From Octopus sinensis (lineage: Eukaryota), in the NCBI RefSeq assembly GCF_006345805.1, contig NC_043010.1, positions 31,310,001 to 31,374,000 on the forward strand: a DNA stretch of 64,000 nt, written 5' to 3'. Below the pieces are notes generated by a model, which was not told the origin of the DNA, made no database searches, and worked only from the letters and a program-made list of their open reading frames with translations. The translations under genes were made by a program, and so were the position numbers. Position 1 is the first letter of the stretch, and each line of letters opens with the position of its first letter. Shown here piece by piece: positions 14,498 through 61,525 of the stretch.

Positions 14498-15185
14498 GCC
14501 TCCGTGTCGGTGGCACGTAAAAGCACCATCCGTTCGTGTCCGTTGCCAGCCTCGCCTGGCCCCCGTGCCGGTGACACGTAAAAGCACCATCCGTTCGTGG
14601 CCGTTTGCCAGCTCTGTCTGGCCCCCGTGTCAGTGGCACGTAAAAGCACCATCCGTTCGTGTCCGTTGCCAGCCTCGCCTGGCCCCCGTGCCGGTGACAC
14701 GTAAAAGCACCATCCGTTCGTGGCCGTTTGCCAGCCCTGTCTGGCCCCCGTGTTGGTGGCACGTAAAAGCACCAACCGTTCGTGGCCGTTTGCCAGCTCT
14801 GTCTGGCCCCCGTGTCAGTGGCACGTAAAAGCACCATCCGTTCGTGTCCGTTGCCAGCCTCGCCTGGCCCCCGTGCCGGTGACACGTAAAAAGCACCATC
14901 CGTTTCATGGCCGTTTGCCAGCCCTGTCTGGCCCCCGTGTTGGTGGCACGTAAAAGCACCATCCGTTCGTGGCCGTTTGCCAGCTCTGTCTGGCACCTGT
15001 GCGGGTGGCATGTAAAAAGCACCCACTACACTCACGGCGTGGTTGGCGTTAGGAAGGGCATCCAGCCGTAAAAACACTGCCAGATCTGACTGGGCCTGAT
15101 GAAGCCTTCCAGCTTCACAGACCCCAGTTGAACCGTCCAACCCATGCTAGTATGGAAAACGGATGCTAAATGATGATGATGATGA

Positions 15186-15190
<5 letters not shown>
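14498..15190 (+). mobile_element. (GAT)n-tailed retroposon 3' end with amplified ~62-bp GC-rich minisatellite
   Basis: About 8 units of g(g/a)cacgtaaaagcaccatccgttcgtg..., then ggttggcgttaggaagggcatccagc..ccaacccatgctag..(GAT)n. Confidence 0.85.
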
Positions 15191-15216
<26 letters not shown>

Positions 15217-15609
15217 CTCATACACATATACTTATGCCACATGCACACACCAGACACACACGCACAACACAAAACACACACACACCTGTGTATATATGAG
15301 AGCTCCATATACCACTGACCAGGATATAAAAATGAGCTGTGACTCATTTATTGTCTAATTATAAAGTGAATGTAACATTGAGTGTGACAAATAATGTGAA
15401 GTGAGGTGTCAGCTATTAACACTGAACTGACAAAAAGCTTACACACTGGAGTCACTTACATCATATAAACAGCTTGTGTCACTCTCTCACCTGCTGAACT
15501 TAGCATGCCTTGTCAGCTCTTACTATTAATTCCATGTCTTAAATCACAGTGTTTACTTTCAAAAATAGACACAGTGGTACTCCACATATATCTAAAGGTA
15601 TCCATAGTT

Positions 15610-20634: not shown

Positions 20635-20649
20635 CCTTCTATTAATAAA

Positions 20650-20710
20650 ATATATATATAGATATATATAGATTTATTATATCTATAATTATATATATTT
20701 ATATATATAT

Positions 20711-20764
<54 letters not shown>

Positions 20765-21163
20765 ATATATATATTTATATATTATATACTTATATATATT
20801 ATATTATATATATATAAGATATTTATATTATATATATATATATATATTTATAATATATATATATATAGATTATTATAATATATTTTAGATAATATATATA
20901 TATTTATATATATATATAATATATATATTTATCTAATATATATAATTTATCATATATATATTATATCTATATATATATATATATTTATATAGATATTATA
21001 TATTTATATATCTATATTATATATATATAATATATATATATATTTATATATTATATATATATTAATATATATATATTATATATAGTATATATATATATAT
21101 TTATATATATATTATATACGTATATATATATATACTATATTATATTTATATATATATTATATA

Positions 21164-21207
<44 letters not shown>

Positions 21208-21255
21208 GTATGTATGTATATATATGTATGTATGTATATACATATACATACATAT
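20650..21255. repeat. imperfect (TA)n microsatellite
   Basis: Low-complexity A/T tract. Confidence 0.9.
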
Positions 21256-21324
21256 AATTGATGCATATATACTGACAGGAACCGTAATCACTCAAAAGCA
21301 CTAGTTCAGAATATTTACTATATT

Positions 21325-21368
21325 GATCAATCAGTTTTGGCTTTTACCATAGCCTCATCAGTAGGGAC
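21325..21368 (-). ncRNA. inverted copy of the same hammerhead (decayed)
   Basis: Reverse complement reads GTCCCTA-CTGATGA-GGCT(atggtaaa)AGCC-AAAAC-TGAttgaTCA. Confidence 0.65.
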
Positions 21369-21828
21369 GGCTGATTCCGAATGAAAGTAATCTAACAGCT
21401 CACCTGCAATGATTGAGAAAGTTGTGGCGAAAGATTGAGAAAGTTGTGATGAAACAGTCAGCAGAAGCTTAGGTGTTTCGCTCATAAACGCATACAGATT
21501 CAAACCTGCGATCCCTCGACCACAGGTCCGCTGCTCTATACACTAAGCCAGGTGCCTCCACTGTCAGTATATATGTATACAATTATGTGCTTTGACTACA
21601 GAATTAGAGTAGTTTAACTCTTATTTATAGCAGTGTAGGTGTTCTGACACCGTTAATCATATTTAATGACAATTATAGTTTTCATTTTTGGTAATGCATT
21701 GCATACCACTGTACATATTAATTATTTGTATACACATTCGCAATTCACTAAATCATCCATAGATTTCTATTGCAAATGCATATATATACTGACAGTGAAT
21801 TTTATCTGGAATCAGCCAAGTGGAGCTG

Positions 21829-21881
21829 TCCCTACTGATGAGGCTATGATAAAAGTCAAAACTAACCAATCAGTATAGGGA
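21829..21881 (+). ncRNA. type I hammerhead ribozyme, G12>A decayed
   Basis: TCCCTA-CTGATGA-GGCT(atgataaa)AGTC-AAAAC-taaccaatca-GTA-TAGGGA. Stem I is a perfect 6 bp; the G of GAAA is lost at a former CpG. Confidence 0.75.
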
Positions 21882-22127
21882 ATTCTTGACCAGTACCTTC
21901 AGGCGCTTATGGTCTCTGTCAGTATATATGGATACAATTTTGTGCTTTGTCTACAACATTAGAGCAGTTGAGCTCTTATTTCTAGCAGTGTAAGTGTTCT
22001 GATATCCTTAGTCATATTTAATGACATTTATAGTTTTCCTTTTTGGTAACGCATTGCACCCCTCTGTCCTTATTAATTATTTACATACACACATAAGAGT
22101 GTTTGGGCTAAATTTAACAGTTTGCAT

Positions 22128-24330
22128 ATATTGTGGAAGGATCCTGACCATCCCCACATGACCAAAAGTGGACTGACACATTTCAGTAAAATAAAGAAAC
22201 TGTATGCACTGTCGGCAGTTGACAGTTTTGATTGTTCATATTGGATTACTGTATTAATTTGATATCATATCCACATTTGGCATAGTACAGAGTATGTTCT
22301 GCATGAACATATTAATTCTGCAAAAGGTTATTCTAGATAACCATATCCAATAATTATTTGGGTAATACTATTCCTGCACCCAACGGGCACTACAACGTTG
22401 TCATAGCATTATTGGCAACCTAGGCTGGATAGAATGTTGTTTGGAACATGGAAGAATTACTAGTATCAGTAATTGGATTACAAAAACAGCAACAGCAGCT
22501 GGTGGAATGGCAGAAGCAACAGCAACTGTTAATACAGCTGCTACTCAACAGAACATAAAATACATCAACTTCATTCCCCCCTGATACGGTTGCAAACTCC
22601 ATCGGTGAATTCACATATAACATGGATGAGGGTATTACCTTTTGTGCATACTACAGAAGGTATGAGGAAATTTTTAAAGAAGAGTACTCAAACTGGCAAA
22701 ATGAAAAAAGAACCTGATTTTTGTTGAGGAAGTTGCCCCAGCAGAGCACAAAAAATACTGCCACTATATATTACCAAAGAGACCAGGGGAAGTCTGTTTC
22801 AAAGAAACTGTTGATACCCTTTCAAAGATTTTCAGCAAGAGAAGTTCCTATGGCTATGCATGAATATTACAAAAAAAGAGGACAAAGATTTTATTACATA
22901 CACTGGAATCGTTAATAATGAATGCAAAAAATTTTAAATGAATAAACTAACACCAGATATGTTTAAATGCTGAAATTTGTAACCAAATTCTGACCAAATT
23001 AGAGCAGAATCAGAAGCTAACACTAAAAGAAATATCTGAGGAATGCCAGAGAATAATAAACCTTAGGCATGATACAGAACAAATTGAAGTAAAAAACTGC
23101 TCTCATATACAATTGGGATGACCCAAATGAAAAGCAGAAAATTAACCCATGGTTCAGATTGGAGAATTACACTACAGATTCAACTGTCTTTATAAAAATC
23201 GAAAATGCTTCAAGTGTGGTAAGATAGGTAAAAAAAAACCACACTGTAAGACAAAACCTAAAAAAACAGTCCAACAGAAAAAAATCATGTAAATAGTTTA
23301 TTGATGACAAGAAATACGAATGAGCCTCAAAGGAAATTTGTGTGTATAAAAATTAATAATACAAATGTAAAATTACAGTTAAATACAGCTGGTGACATTA
23401 CTTCAATTAATGAAAACACTTGGAAATAAAAATCAGGAAAGCTACACTACAGAAATCCTCAAAAATTGCCTATGACATAAAAATCCATTTTCAAAGGTGA
23501 AATTATTTGTGTAATATCATACGTGAACTACCAGTTACATTACAAGACATAAAATTAAAAGTAGAAAATGGTTGATGTTTTAAAAAAATTAAAGAAATAC
23601 TGAGGGCTAAAAGAGATAAAAATAAGCATTTTGCTGAAGGCAACAAATTTGAACCTATTCTCAATGTATGACAATGTGTTAATGTAAGTACAAAGAGTCA
23701 TAGTGCCAGCCACACTACAGAAGCGATTACTAAAGCAATTTCACATTAGTCACTCAGCAATTTCAAGAATGAAATTGCTTTGAGAAGTTATGTATATTGG
23801 CCAAGAATGGACTGTGACATTGAAGAACTAGTGAAAGCATGCAGAAGTTGTGCTCTAGCTGCAAAAGGACCTACCACTAAATGGCAACCATGGCCAAAAA
23901 CAGATATTCCTATGTCCAGATTGCATATTAATTATGCAGGTCCACTTAAGGGTTCATATTACCTTGTTGTGGTGGACAGTTTTTCAAAGTGGCCCGAAGT
24001 GCATAAATGTAAAAAACCAACATCTGAAGATACAGTAAGTTTTTTTACACAAATTGTTTACCAGATATGGTATTCCTGATACCAATGTGTCTGATAATGG
24101 AACTCAGTTTACTTCAGATGAGTCCAAAAAATTTTGTAAAATGTTCATTATTGAACATATGACCACTCTGCTGTATCACCCTAGGTCAAATGGTCAAGCG
24201 GAGCATTTTGTTGATACTTTTAAGAGGGATTTATAAAAGGTGAACAATGAAGTAATGGACAACCTAGCACTTCAACAATTTCTAAGAGTATGCCAAGTAA
24301 CACCGAATCTGAATACCCCATCTGATGTGT
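22128..24330 (+). mobile_element. decayed Gypsy LTR retrotransposon, RT/RNaseH deleted, 3' truncated
   Basis: 5' LTR-like TATTGTGGAAGGATCC...CTACAAC (22128-22397), gag from MEELLVSV ~22448, knuckle CFKCGKIG ~23205, decayed protease KLQLNTAGDI ~23370, integrase RSYVYWP/VVVDSFSKWPEV/SDNGTQF/HPRSNGQAE 23780-24236. Same family as 1862-7893. Confidence 0.88.
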
Positions 24331-24394: not shown

Positions 24395-24955
24395 GCGTTT
24401 CGTAATCCGGCAGGACACGTGAGGCCATAACCCATGGCCCCTACCTGGGACGTAGTCAGTCCACCTGTGCATACCTTCCTTCTTGGGACACTTGTGAAGA
24501 CCTGTTGAGGCAAGTGAAAATCAAACCAAATCAAAATCGATGAACATCAATGGAATTTGTATCTTTGTGGTACCAGTGCCGGTGGCACATAAGAAAACTA
24601 TCCGAACGTGGCCATAGCCAGTACCGCATCGACTGGCCTCCGTGCTGTGGGCACGTAACAAACACCATCCGATCGTGGCCGTTCGCCAGCCTCGTCTGGC
24701 ACCTGTGTCAGTGGCACATAAAAAACACCATCCGAGCGTGGCCGTTCGCCAGCCTCGTCTGGCACCTGTGTCGGTGGCACATAAAATCACCCACTACACT
24801 CTCGGAGTGGTTGGCGTTAGGAAGGGCATCCAGCTGTAGAAACACTGCCAGATCTGACTGGTCTGGTGCAGCCTTCGGGCTTCCCAGACCCCAGTTGAAC
24901 CGTCCAACCCATGCTAGCATGGAAAGCGGACGTTAAACGATGATGATGATGATAT
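24395..24955 (+). mobile_element. (GAT)n-tailed retroposon 3' end with 3 internal repeat units
   Basis: Same family as 14498-15190. Decayed copies at ~34870, 36330, 37230, 52020, 58040. Confidence 0.8.
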
Positions 24956-24957
24956 AT

Positions 24958-25021
<64 letters not shown>

Positions 25022-48656: not shown

Positions 48657-50956
48657 CTTCGTAACACAGTGTAAATAAAAATGCACCAGAGTTTTTAGTC
48701 ATCTGTCAAGTCACAACAAGGACCTTAGACAGATAATACTTTCCTTAAGATGTGGGCTGTGCCCAATAAGGCTGCTTTTTGCAAGACATCAATCTTGCAT
48801 GGGATTTCCAGTTGCCTTAAGAAGTCATGAAGTTTCAATGGGATTGAGCCCAACACTCCGATCACCACTGGTATCACTTTTACATTACCCTCTCACATTC
48901 CATACAGTCTTGCCATTTCCACTTGCAATTCAGAGTACTTGGTGATTTTTTCAACCTCTTTACTCACAACATTCATGTCATTTGGTATGGCTACATCAAT
49001 GATCTGACAGTATTTGTCTCTCTTACTCAATATGACAATATCCCACTGACGGTGTTCGATTACACAATCTGTCTGAAAATCATAGTACCAGAGTATTGTT
49101 ACTTTTCCATCCTCCTGCATGACTTTATTTGGTACATGCTCATACCAGTTCTCTGTTACTTCATATTGGTATTTATGGCATAAGAGCCCATGGAGATACA
49201 CACACATTTTATTGTGGTGGTACTTGTATTCCTTTTGTGCAAGGCTTTCACATCCATTTACCAAGTGGATCAGATTGTCCACGGTCTTTCCACAGATTCT
49301 GCATTTCTGTGTGTCAGAAGTTTTATAGATGTTATACTTCACTGACTTGGTAGCGAGAGCCTGGTTTTTTAGTCTTTTGGTGGTACACTTCAAATCACCT
49401 CGCTCAAGTCATGCCCACGATGCTGTATTATCCTTAACGTCTTGTGTATTCCTTTCAAACTGTCCATGCAGTCTCTTTTCAATCTCTTCTTTTCTCTTCT
49501 CCTCAGCTCTTTGGTTAAACTCCTCCTTGCCCATCATTTCATCTGCATTTACACCCATATCTTTCAGGGTATATTGCAGCAGGTCTTCATCACTATTTGT
49601 CAAATACTCAGCAAGCGTTCTCCTTTCACTCCTTATACAATGGTCTATACTAGTTAGTCCTCTGTCACCATTCTTTCTTTTCATATGCAGTCTGTATACG
49701 TTTGCTTTAGTTCATATACGTTTGCTTTAGGGTGTAGTGCCCCATGCAGCAGCATCAACTTTCTCGTCCTTCTATCCAGTGTTGATATTTCTTCCTTAGT
49801 CCATTTGAGGATGGACGCACTATATCTGACCACCGCAACTGTCCAGATATTCATTGTGGTAATCAAATTTTTGGCATTCAGGGTGGATTTCAACACCATC
49901 TTCACCTTTTTTGATATGCCTCACTGACCTTGACTTTCATCAGACAATTTGTGATGGTGACTTGCATTAGAAGATTTGTCATGTTGTCAGCAACACCAAA
50001 CATCTGCAGGCATTCAACAATCCAAGAATGAGGCATCATATCATATGCCTTCTTAAAGTCAATCCAAGCCATAGACATGTTTGTATGATGTTTTTAAACA
50101 ATGCTTCAAAACCGTTTTATCAATGACCAGGTGATCCTTGGTACTCTGAGAACTGTTCCTACATCCTTTTTGTTCCCTTGGTAGTATTTCTTCCTGTGCC
50201 AGGAAAGTGTATGTTTTTGCTGCACACATTTCAGTGAGTATCTTCCAGATTATGTTTAGGCATGCTATGGGGACGGTAGTTTCCCACAATATTCCCCTTT
50301 CTTCTATCTTTCACTATAAGTGTTGTCCTCCCATCACCATCCACATGGGAACTGTACCTTTCAGGACACACTCTTTCAATTGGGCTGCTAGTCTTTCATG
50401 CACCATGTGGCATCTCTTCAGCCAAAAGCCATGAATCCCATCTGGTCTGGGGGCTTTCTAGTTAGGCACTTTACCCACTTGTTCTTTCACATCACCTGTG
50501 CTTATGACAATATTCCTTTGTTTCTTTCCTCCTTGTAATTCTGTCTTGATAGTTCCTATCCACATTGCATCCCTTTTATGCAACACATTGTTTCCCCATA
50601 ATCTGCTCCAGAACTTCTTGGCTTGATTTGCATCAGGAGCAACATTTTCCCCAAAGTCTCCTTGTAACATTCAGAAGAATTGCTTTAGGTTATTTTTGAA
50701 GAATCTATTCTCCTCAAACTGCTTATTTCTGTTCACAAATCTTCTGATCTTCTGGCTTTTTGCCATGATCCTCTGTTTTAACTGCTCTATTACTGCACCA
50801 AATCTATTCTTCCGTATTTTATATTTCTTCTCTAATTTTTCTTGGTTGGTCTTTTTCCCATTTTCCCAGTTTCCTCTTAACTATTGCTAAATTTTTTCTT
50901 GGTTTTGCCTTGCACACATTATGTCCCTTTCCACCATAATTCTTTTGCTCCACCAT
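48657..50956 (-). mobile_element. R4/Dong-clade non-LTR retrotransposon (RT + CCHC + restriction-like endonuclease), decayed
   Basis: EQKGCR..STKDHL, AWIDFKKAYD, VVRYSA, CRICGKTVDNLIHLVNGC, HRQWDIVI..IIDVAIP, KITKY. Flanked on both sides by (ATT)n. RT core deleted near 49950. Confidence 0.88.
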
Positions 50957-59712: not shown

Positions 59713-60016
59713 GTAAGCATTGTTTTCAAAATATTTTTGTTTTCAAAAATTAAAACTGATTTTGGAGAATCTAAATTCAAAAGATGAAGTTATTACAAAC
59801 AATGAAATCAAATTTATAAGTCAAAATTAAAATATATATTTATATATACACACACACACATACGTATGCATGTATGGGTGTGTATGTGTATATATATAAG
59901 TATATGTATGTAAAGAGAAAGGACAATCCACTAACAGTTAAATATACATACTAATTTGTTTCTTTTAAAATACCAATTGTTATTAGTTGCTGTCTAGAAT
60001 TTGACCATTAAAAATT

Positions 60017-61525
60017 ATGGATAAAAACTTGTCACCGAAACCATTTCCTTGTGACTTGTGTGGAGAAAGTTTTTCACGTCGCAGTACTATGCTGCAACAT
60101 AAACGAACTCATACTGGTGAGAAACCGTTCCATTGTGAGATCTGTTCAAAAGGATTTACACGACCATACACACTCCAAAAGCATCGTCGCTGCCACACGG
60201 GTGAAAAACCATTTGCTTGTGATATTTGTGGTCGTAATTTCTCACGCAGCAGTACTTTGCATGAACACAAGCGAACGCATGCCGGTGACAAACCGTTCCA
60301 GTGTGATATCTGTAGGGACAACTTTTCACGGCGGAGCACATTACTCCAACACCATCGCACGCATTCTGGCGAGAAACCGTTTCCCTGCGAAGTTTGCGGG
60401 AAGAAGTTTACGCGTCGATACACTTTGCAGAAACATGCAAGAGACCACACACGTGAAGCACCATATCACTGTGAAATATGCGGGTGCCGGTTCACACGGC
60501 CTTTCGCTCTTCAGAAACATCGCCGCTCACATACAGGAGAAAAACGATTCCATTGTGATGTATGTGGGGAGAGTTTTTCTCGAAGAAGCAACCTGCATGT
60601 TCACCAAAGAACCCACACCGGCGAAAAGCCATTCAGCTGTTCGTTGTGTGGCAAAAGCTTTTCTCGCAGAAGCAATCTACAAGTACACATACGCAGTCAC
60701 TCAGGAATTAAGCCGTACTGCTGTGAATATTGCAGTAAACGGTTTGTTCGAAGCAGCACACTGTTAGAACATAAACGCATTCACACAGGTGAGAAAGCTT
60801 CATTCCAAAATTTCAATCCTCCTCCTCTTCCTCCTCCTCCTCCTGTTGCCATCAATCCAACTACTGTTGTCAGCAACAACAACAACAACAATAATGCTGA
60901 GAAGAATAGTTGCGTCATGAAAAGTTCAATTGATGACAGCCACAAAGAATTCGTTTTCAGTACTAACAATAACAACACCAATACTAATAGTGACGTTGCC
61001 ATGGGAAACGGTAAACAGTTTACCTACAACATAATTACAGCAGCTGCTAACAATACTTTTCAGAATACTAATGGAGACGAAAACTCTCATAATGAGGCAC
61101 TTCTTGCAACAGATAATAATATGCAATTCAATCAACCCAGGCTAGCCACCACCACTACAACTGATGGCTCTATGTTGCACTGCAGCAACTGTGGAAAGCC
61201 ATATGCCCAATGTTGCCATGTACAACACCAGCAGCTGTTGCTGCAAAGGGGAGCAACCTATTTACAGTCGCAAGCCAGGACCCGGTTATCAGCTTTGGTG
61301 ACAGCCAGAAAATGGCTTGAGCCGCCCACTGTGATAGTAGCTGCCTCTACCACTGCAAACCAGACCAGTATGCCCCCGAATGCTGCTGCTACAGCCATAG
61401 CTTATTCTGAACCTTCCAAAACAGGCCTTCAAACTAACCTTGCTGCAGAGACACTGCCACCTACAGCTTGTAATACACTGGTAGTTGTACAACCCCCAAC
61501 TGCTTGCCCTATAATGGAAACCTGA
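60017..61525 (+). CDS. C2H2 zinc-finger protein, 9 tandem fingers plus low-complexity (Pro/Asn/Thr/Gln) C-terminal tail
   Basis: 502-aa ORF with nine fingers (60044-60784) and TGEKP-type linkers, a degenerate CSNC finger in the tail, and an acceptor-like ttgttattag about 30 nt upstream of the ATG. Confidence 0.95.
   Translation: MDKNLSPKPFPCDLCGESFSRRSTMLQHKRTHTGEKPFHCEICSKGFTRPYTLQKHRRCHTGEKPFACDICGRNFSRSSTLHEHKRTHAGDKPFQCDICRDNFSRRSTLLQHHRTHSGEKPFPCEVCGKKFTRRYTLQKHARDHTREAPYHCEICGCRFTRPFALQKHRRSHTGEKRFHCDVCGESFSRRSNLHVHQRTHTGEKPFSCSLCGKSFSRRSNLQVHIRSHSGIKPYCCEYCSKRFVRSSTLLEHKRIHTGEKASFQNFNPPPLPPPPPVAINPTTVVSNNNNNNNAEKNSCVMKSSIDDSHKEFVFSTNNNNTNTNSDVAMGNGKQFTYNIITAAANNTFQNTNGDENSHNEALLATDNNMQFNQPRLATTTTTDGSMLHCSNCGKPYAQCCHVQHQQLLLQRGATYLQSQARTRLSALVTARKWLEPPTVIVAASTTANQTSMPPNAAATAIAYSEPSKTGLQTNLAAETLPPTACNTLVVVQPPTACPIMET

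Follow-up and report, generated by a model that had tools for sequence, protein, structure and literature searches.

The locus at 21251-22091 of the Octopus sinensis DNA analysed here (the window, a stretch of 64,000 nucleotides from contig NC_043010.1) is real and decayed, and probably belongs to a multi-copy family of hammerhead repeats that would work like an animal non-LTR retrozyme; from the sequence we put the probability of this at about 0.75. In the length of the unit, its canonical type I fold and the lack of a coding ORF, the locus agrees with the definition of a retrozyme. The direct array (21561-22091) comprises 1.5 units and carries a single hammerhead, and a 176-nt repeat (21561-21736 and 21916-22091) is 86% identical between the units at a spacing of 355 nt, so that the original prediction of a unit of about 355 bp recurring at 21561 and 21916 was correct. 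The full unit, A (21561-21915, plus strand), contained a clamp arm (21561-76), an AT-rich body, a partner arm (21780-95) and a ribozyme domain (21796-21915), and the partial second unit, B (21916-22091, plus strand), contained the clamp arm and body over 176 nt. Inside the element the only stop-to-stop frames of at least 55 aa were of 71 and 73 aa, with no Pfam matches. The ribozyme part has a GC content of 40%, compared with 25-34% in the surrounding 2-kb bins. Unit B is followed by 37 nt (22092-22128) that aligned poorly with the continuation of unit A; this stretch is repeated in the genome (summed depth 3000-5000) and is possibly derived from another subfamily. By eye, it begins with bases similar to the complement of a clamp-like arm in the loose ends of other subfamilies.

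The ribozyme domain of unit A was predicted to form an extended canonical type I hammerhead (21820-21890, plus strand), in which 19 of the 21 pairs are present as the sequence stands and all 21 with a G restored at 21864, a C restored at 21822 and the letter of the inverted copy at 21856. It consists of a lower stem I (21820-25 with 21885-90), a 3x3 internal loop, stem I (21829-34 with 21876-81), the CUGAUGA box (21835-41), a stem II of 4 bp with an 8-nt loop, an AAAA in place of GAAA (the substitution G12A, at 21858), a 5-bp stem III (21861-65 with 21870-74) and a GUA triplet, with cleavage predicted after 21875. This was the sole locus in the window that passed a strict type I descriptor, which found 0.18 matches per window in shuffled sequence (n=50); the hammerhead originally placed at 21829-81 was confirmed, as a canonical type I fold. 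The inverted hammerhead that had been placed at 21325-68 was also present, with a slightly wider true span of 21315-21367 on the minus strand. It is a decayed type I hammerhead, with G12A at 21338 and with the cleavage triplet and the 3' strand of stem I broken. Scores against the Rfam family Hammerhead_3 were 31.3 bits for the plus copy and 22.0 bits for the inverted copy, both below the gathering score of 48.5. Over the whole window, Rfam gave 121 matches, nearly all of them microsatellite artefacts, and one weak hammerhead match. In the subfamily of the plus hammerhead the 3' strand of helix III is complementary to the core CUGA. The competing fold formed by this pairing was the predicted minimum, 1.6 kcal/mol below the ribozyme fold (-25.0 vs -23.4 kcal/mol) even with the restored letters, in a model without tertiary contacts.

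The 13-mer that forms the clamp occurred four times (at 21266, 21561, 21783 and 21916), compared with 0.33 expected occurrences, and none of 100 shuffles reached four. It had been proposed that a 13-bp stem (21783-95 with 21916-28) clamps the ribozyme domain, and this stem is present and extends to 15-16 bp. The arm at 21780-95 pairs equally well with 21561-76, which closes the body, and with 21916-30, which closes the ribozyme domain. Each arm occurs once per monomer, so that in a circle the two pairings would be the same helix. In other words, the clamp would be the central helix of a circular monomer, dividing a rod-like body from the ribozyme domain. The circular fold of unit A had a z score of -2.6 (0 of 100 shuffles as good), compared with -4.3 for the antisense strand, and the fold of a third copy of the repeat, found at the start of the window, was weak (z -1.7, 7 of 100 shuffles as good). 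Because the antisense strand scored better and the third copy was weak, folding does not fix the strand.

This third copy (1-326, plus strand), which was absent from the original prediction, is diverged, belongs to another subfamily and is cut by the start of the window. It is similar to the body in stretches of 63 nt (83%) and 120 nt (73%), the body as a whole being approximately 25% diverged. The order of its parts was the 3' part of the body, an arm, a type I hammerhead (approximately 98-167), an arm, the 5' part of the body and (TA)n, and 15 of 17 pairs of the clamp were kept despite changed letters. The hammerhead descriptor matched it at 113, in stems that differ from those of the other copies. 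The GAAA keeps its G and has one A missing, so that this motif is damaged in all three copies in the window, and stem II is fully paired only if shifted by one base (by eye). Also by eye, its helix III has no complementarity to the core CUGA. In an ungapped alignment of the three copies, 4 of 15 pairs had changed on both sides and were still paired. Paired cells made up 82% of this alignment. In slid controls they made up 20-44%, and a value as high was reached by 10 of 500 shuffles. The four double changes fell among 11 pairs of stems I and III (p 0.003 as a binomial estimate), which is support and not proof, the test being made on three related sequences only. The stems are preserved across the three window copies and across variants in sequencing reads, which was one of the checks originally proposed. 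No hammerhead family in Rfam scored for the third copy, and a search with a covariance model built from the three copies matched only the training sequences.

To the left of the direct array, the repeat is inverted. The inverted copy at 21256-21372 was 77% identical to 21824-21939 over 118 nt (E 7e-19). The outer end of the inverted segment (21251-21278, minus strand) is made up of the clamp arm and the first 28 nt of the body, with 26 of 31 columns identical to 21561-21591, and reading it as a direct copy of the other arm gave a worse fit (23 of 34 columns, with 6 gaps). Next to it is the inverted ribozyme domain (21279-21390, minus strand, with an approximate 5' boundary near 21390), which belongs to the same subfamily as the plus copy.

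Between the inverted domain and unit A is the 5' part of a high-copy repeat (21408-21560, minus strand), also absent from the original prediction, which we take to be a tRNA-like SINE. It contains an A-box-like sequence (21540-21550), a B box (21497-21506) and a 22-nt duplication (21408-21451). ARAGORN found no tRNA gene, indicating that the SINE head is not an intact tRNA. The 5' end of the SINE abuts 21561 without a gap, and the fragment is truncated at its 3' end and runs in the same direction as the inverted ribozyme. Its summed depth in three DNA runs was approximately 1e4 to 2.5e5, exceeding every other part of the locus in two of them (X1 and X3). One of the variants listed, 21502 A>G, is the majority letter (43137 of 49196 in X1) and gives back the canonical B box. 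Contigs that extended past the 5' end of the SINE at 21561 had unrelated flanks. A family of SINE-hammerhead fusions was considered and rejected, the depth over the junction at 21370-21399 (68, 9 and 4, at 80% likeness) being at or below that of locus-specific contigs, so that the fusion appears particular to this locus. Polymerase III read-through of a whole dimer was also rejected, and is opposed by T4-T5 runs in the body.

The left end of the locus is flanked by a (TA)n/(TATG)n microsatellite (20640-21250, without assigned strand, recognised from sequence and repeat families), which is likely to have been the insertion target. (TA)n adjoins both the left end of the locus at 21250 and the right end of the third copy at 326, which is weak evidence of a (TA)n target, since such repeats are dense in the window. 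No target site duplication was found; the left flank is microsatellite and the right end adjoins a Gypsy LTR, and the longest word common to the two flanks was a low-complexity 8-mer. The right flank is a decayed Gypsy-type LTR retrotransposon (22129-24330, plus strand, right boundary approximate), another feature absent from the original prediction. Its start at 22129 matches two other copies at 2337 and 7891, and it has integrase Pfam matches at 23750-24233. It is a separate insertion.

The sequencing reads showed that this is a multi-copy family, in which the ribozyme subfamily of unit A is a minority. The comparison covered four of the 24 sequencing runs listed. At 80% likeness, 1566, 1440 and 1782 contigs matched in the three DNA runs, counts that include SINE contigs; contig depth is not a copy number. 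Single body positions were covered by up to 114 contigs, and the ribozyme domain of the plus copy by roughly 2 to 18. Among the variants listed, which are 40 of 267 and do not include position 21858, other copies carried the G at 21864 that restores stem III (732/960, 351/445 and 720/844 of the depth) and the C at 21822 that restores lower stem I (949/1106, 247/383 and 272/357). In 44, 45 and 60 contigs, the sequence upstream of 21561 resembled the 3' segment of the hammerhead, and contig joints from 21846 to 21561 and from 21884 to 21561 gave further ribozyme-to-body continuity. Hammerhead-like sequence and joints in this position indicate that continuity from ribozyme to body is the norm and that the junction with the SINE is particular to this place. 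None of the contigs, which are short, spanned a dimer. The fourth run, guessed to be RNA, gave five contigs, including a 258-nt piece over 21610-21866 at depth 2, and was not taken as evidence of expression. A scan with the ribozyme pattern gave 0 matches in metagenome contigs and 0 in viral contigs. The body pattern matched one metagenome locus, which was rejected as a chance 21-nt match with no further homology.

Almost no activity is predicted for either ribozyme at the locus. In the hammerhead, G12 acts as the general base, and G12A slows cleavage more than 500-fold in minimal and approximately a million-fold in full-length ribozymes (PMC2553840). Because both local ribozymes carry G12A, both should be near-dead. 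The locus copy is decayed and probably without function. The GAAA to AAAA change after a C, which had been proposed in both copies, was found at 21858 and 21338. Its attribution to decay of methylated CpG agrees in part with the local pattern: CpG in the window has an observed/expected ratio of 0.35 and there is an excess of TpG and CpA, and the two ribozyme domains are separated by 20 transitions and 3 transversions, compared with 11 and 13 in the bodies (p 0.0002 for transitions). Approximately 7 of 8 CpG copies of a 30-nt loose-end consensus were lost, by eye, across the two local copies, once in opposite directions, a count in which two alignments were ambiguous and agreement with the consensus was only 0.62-0.66. 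Against this attribution, octopus transposons are reported to be poorly methylated, and satellites somewhat more so (PMC9476566). A CpG context was visible for only 7 of the 20 transitions in the ribozyme domains. It is possible that the G12A in both copies was inherited from one donor.

Animal non-LTR retrozymes are described as low-GC tandem units of 150-450 bp that carry canonical type I hammerheads. In coral, mussel and axolotl they are expressed as circles, and Penelope-like machinery has been proposed for them (PMC7229834; PMC7761336). Reported unit sizes are 350-390 bp in mussel and 330/350 bp in axolotl (PMC7229834; bioRxiv 10.64898/2026.07.22.740005). The octopus family is like these in its 355-nt, AT-rich, ORF-less unit, in having one canonical type I hammerhead per unit with a stable helix III, and in its head-to-tail junctions, multiple copies with subfamilies and predicted self-paired monomer. 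It is unlike them in that the locus has 1.5 direct units plus an inverted segment with a SINE, and both ribozymes carry G12A. The available text of bioRxiv 10.64898/2026.07.22.740005 calls a retrozyme active when consecutive hammerheads lie on the same strand, and the locus has none. It had been suggested that the locus is an ORF-less retroelement mobilised in trans by a Penelope-like RT. An ORF-less hammerhead element is the best reading here too, although this class has already been described and there was no mobilising RT among the 17 ORFs scanned.

A different class assignment follows if an autonomous Penelope-like element has the unit as its pseudo-LTR, the locus being a heavily 5'-truncated tandem and inverted insertion of that element acting in cis. 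Penelope-like insertions are described with partial tandems, inverted copies and a bias towards (TA)n, and such elements are reported in cephalopods (PMC6962438; 10.1101/2021.04.23.441226); the octopus locus shares the partial tandem with an inversion, the (TA)n target and the type I hammerhead with the pseudo-LTRs of endonuclease-bearing members (Penelope/Poseidon, Neptune and Naiad; Craig et al. 2021, 10.1101/2021.04.23.441226). In addition, vertebrate retrozymes have been linked to pseudo-LTRs, the two being homologous in Xenopus (bioRxiv 10.64898/2026.07.22.740005), and contigs of the body far exceed those of the plus-copy ribozyme domain, many with other upstream sequence. However, pseudo-LTR hammerheads are described as minimal, without helix III or tertiary loops (PMC7761336), whereas the plus hammerhead is canonical, its helix III having 5 bp and its stem I being extended. 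Neither an RT nor a GIY-YIG domain was found in the subset of 17 ORFs chosen for scanning in the window, and none of the ORFs scanned beside the copies was RT-like. The order body, arm, ribozyme, arm, body is kept in the third copy and in contigs, and closes as one self-paired unit. The architecture originally called Penelope-type is present in its partial tandem and inversion, but the inverted part is not adjacent, a SINE intervening, and the outer ends lie at different points of the unit. The 28-nt overlap at the locus may or may not correspond to the 30-40-bp tail of Penelope elements. Taken together, this assignment appears unlikely.

Far less probable still is a reading in which two MITE-like DNA transposons (21266-21573 and 21783-21928) were inserted at TA sites and have the 13-bp motifs as their terminal inverted repeats, with the hammerhead a passenger or a chance match. 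The four motif copies do form two inverted pairs with TA outside, but homology crosses the motifs on both sides in the third copy and in contigs, the arms change in compensating pairs, and matches to the hammerhead descriptor are rare in shuffles. These observations largely refute the reading, and it was rejected.

As a retrozyme, the element probably entered the TA microsatellite through a single event of reverse transcription, and it decayed afterwards. By analogy with known retrozymes, tandem copies would be transcribed, hammerheads would cut out 355-nt monomers, a host ligase would circularise them, and a borrowed RT would copy the RNA for more than one round. It is reasonably probable, on the same analogy, that the borrowed RT is Penelope-like. 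For the locus itself, we consider the odds about even for a single event with two primers. Synthesis would be primed by two DNA ends at almost identical positions on the RNA, one giving the direct array that starts at body position +1 and the other the inverted segment that ends at body position +28; the latter would continue through the hammerhead domain onto SINE RNA and copy this as far as its 5' end, and there the two products would be joined. The two breakpoints lie within 28 nt on a 355-nt unit, which would happen by chance approximately one time in six (an arithmetic estimate). The duplicated body gave 21 variant entries, of which two with a minority other letter were dropped; the remaining 19 represented 16 informative positions, and among the variants listed 4 non-majority letters were common to A and B and 12 were private. 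This fits a single template or subfamily followed by independent decay. Two further observations favour a single event: transversion divergence did not differ between the body and ribozyme pairs (13/176 vs 3/89, p 0.28), and the two cores come to lie 357 nt apart when 21279-21560 is flipped. Twin priming and template switching to small RNAs have been described for LINE machinery (PMC4476161, PMC13174262). The LINE-1 twin-priming inversions and SINE template-switch chimeras described there have, like the octopus locus, opposed segments in one insertion and a polymerase III-type RNA with an intact 5' end fused in sense to a retroelement piece. They differ in being vertebrate insertions with poly(A) tails and target site duplications; neither was seen at the octopus locus, whose template would have been a ribozyme repeat.

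The same arrangement could have been built stepwise, from a head-to-tail dimer beside an older SINE that was later inverted between short repeats, or by a later SINE insertion with a deletion, the shared G12A possibly coming from a dead donor. Flipping 21279-21560 yields a clean dimer with the two hammerhead cores 357 nt apart, SINE copies are very abundant, and G12A is common to both ribozymes. This series of steps nevertheless calls for additional events and for a 28-nt inverted repeat that was present beforehand. The 5' end of the SINE lies exactly at the junction and its 3' end is truncated, which fits a template switch, and the ribozyme domains have otherwise decayed independently, by the 20 transitions and 3 transversions noted above. 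A stepwise origin is therefore possible but doubtful. More tentatively, and with the chances against it as a whole, the locus may be the fossil of one two-primer event with a switch to SINE RNA, and the family an undescribed cephalopod family of circular RNAs with one kept body, a covarying hammerhead domain and a built-in 'off' fold formed by pairing of the core CUGA to the strand of helix III.

Animal retrozymes are already known, and in the available text of the papers that describe them their mobilisation is only hypothesised (PMC7229834, PMC7761336, bioRxiv 10.64898/2026.07.22.740005). Inverted-plus-tandem insertions into TA repeats would provide junctions able to test the Penelope hypothesis through counts of breakpoints. 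If other loci repeat the pattern seen here, they would supply sequence-level evidence of how, and by which enzyme, animal retrozymes are moved. The family would also add a cephalopod to the hosts of retrozymes, and a circular RNA of approximately 355 nt is predicted to be abundant. In the literature searched, which was mostly open-access, no description of a cephalopod retrozyme was found, and supplements or repeat databases may list the family. The available text on the giant squid genome counts 235 hammerhead matches and leaves their elements undescribed (PMC6962438).

The animal DNA of the window is rich in AT and contains long TA microsatellites as well as C2H2 zinc-finger genes. Several other repeats were observed in it. 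Simple hammerhead-like cores (CUGANGA, stem II and GAAAC) were found at 30640 (plus), 54229 (plus) and 54059 (minus), compared with 0.17 expected in shuffles, and these resemble minimal Penelope-type motifs; similar decayed cores were seen by eye near 556 (plus) and 11886 (minus). In a palindromic repeat at 1441-1605, each arm contains a string like CUGAUGA...GAAAC (1488 on the minus strand, 1542 on the plus strand), and the palindrome is possibly an inverted pair of Penelope-type ends. The Gypsy-type LTR family is represented by decayed pieces at 22129-24330 (plus), 2265-3620 (minus), 5212-5427 (minus) and 7620-7891 (minus), approximately 80% identical to each other and with integrase Pfam matches. 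At 48893-49711 (minus), stop-to-stop frames of 171 and 100 aa had no Pfam match and appeared by eye to be the C-terminal part of a non-LTR retrotransposon. Two copies of approximately 950 nt (31093-32034 and 31915-32858), 96% identical and mostly microsatellite, arose either by recent tandem duplication or as an artefact of assembly. At 14498-15230 and 24562-24997 there is a SINE-like repeat that contains a minisatellite of approximately 61 nt, and two C2H2 zinc-finger ORFs were encoded at 26999-28303 (434 codons) and 60005-61525 (506 codons).
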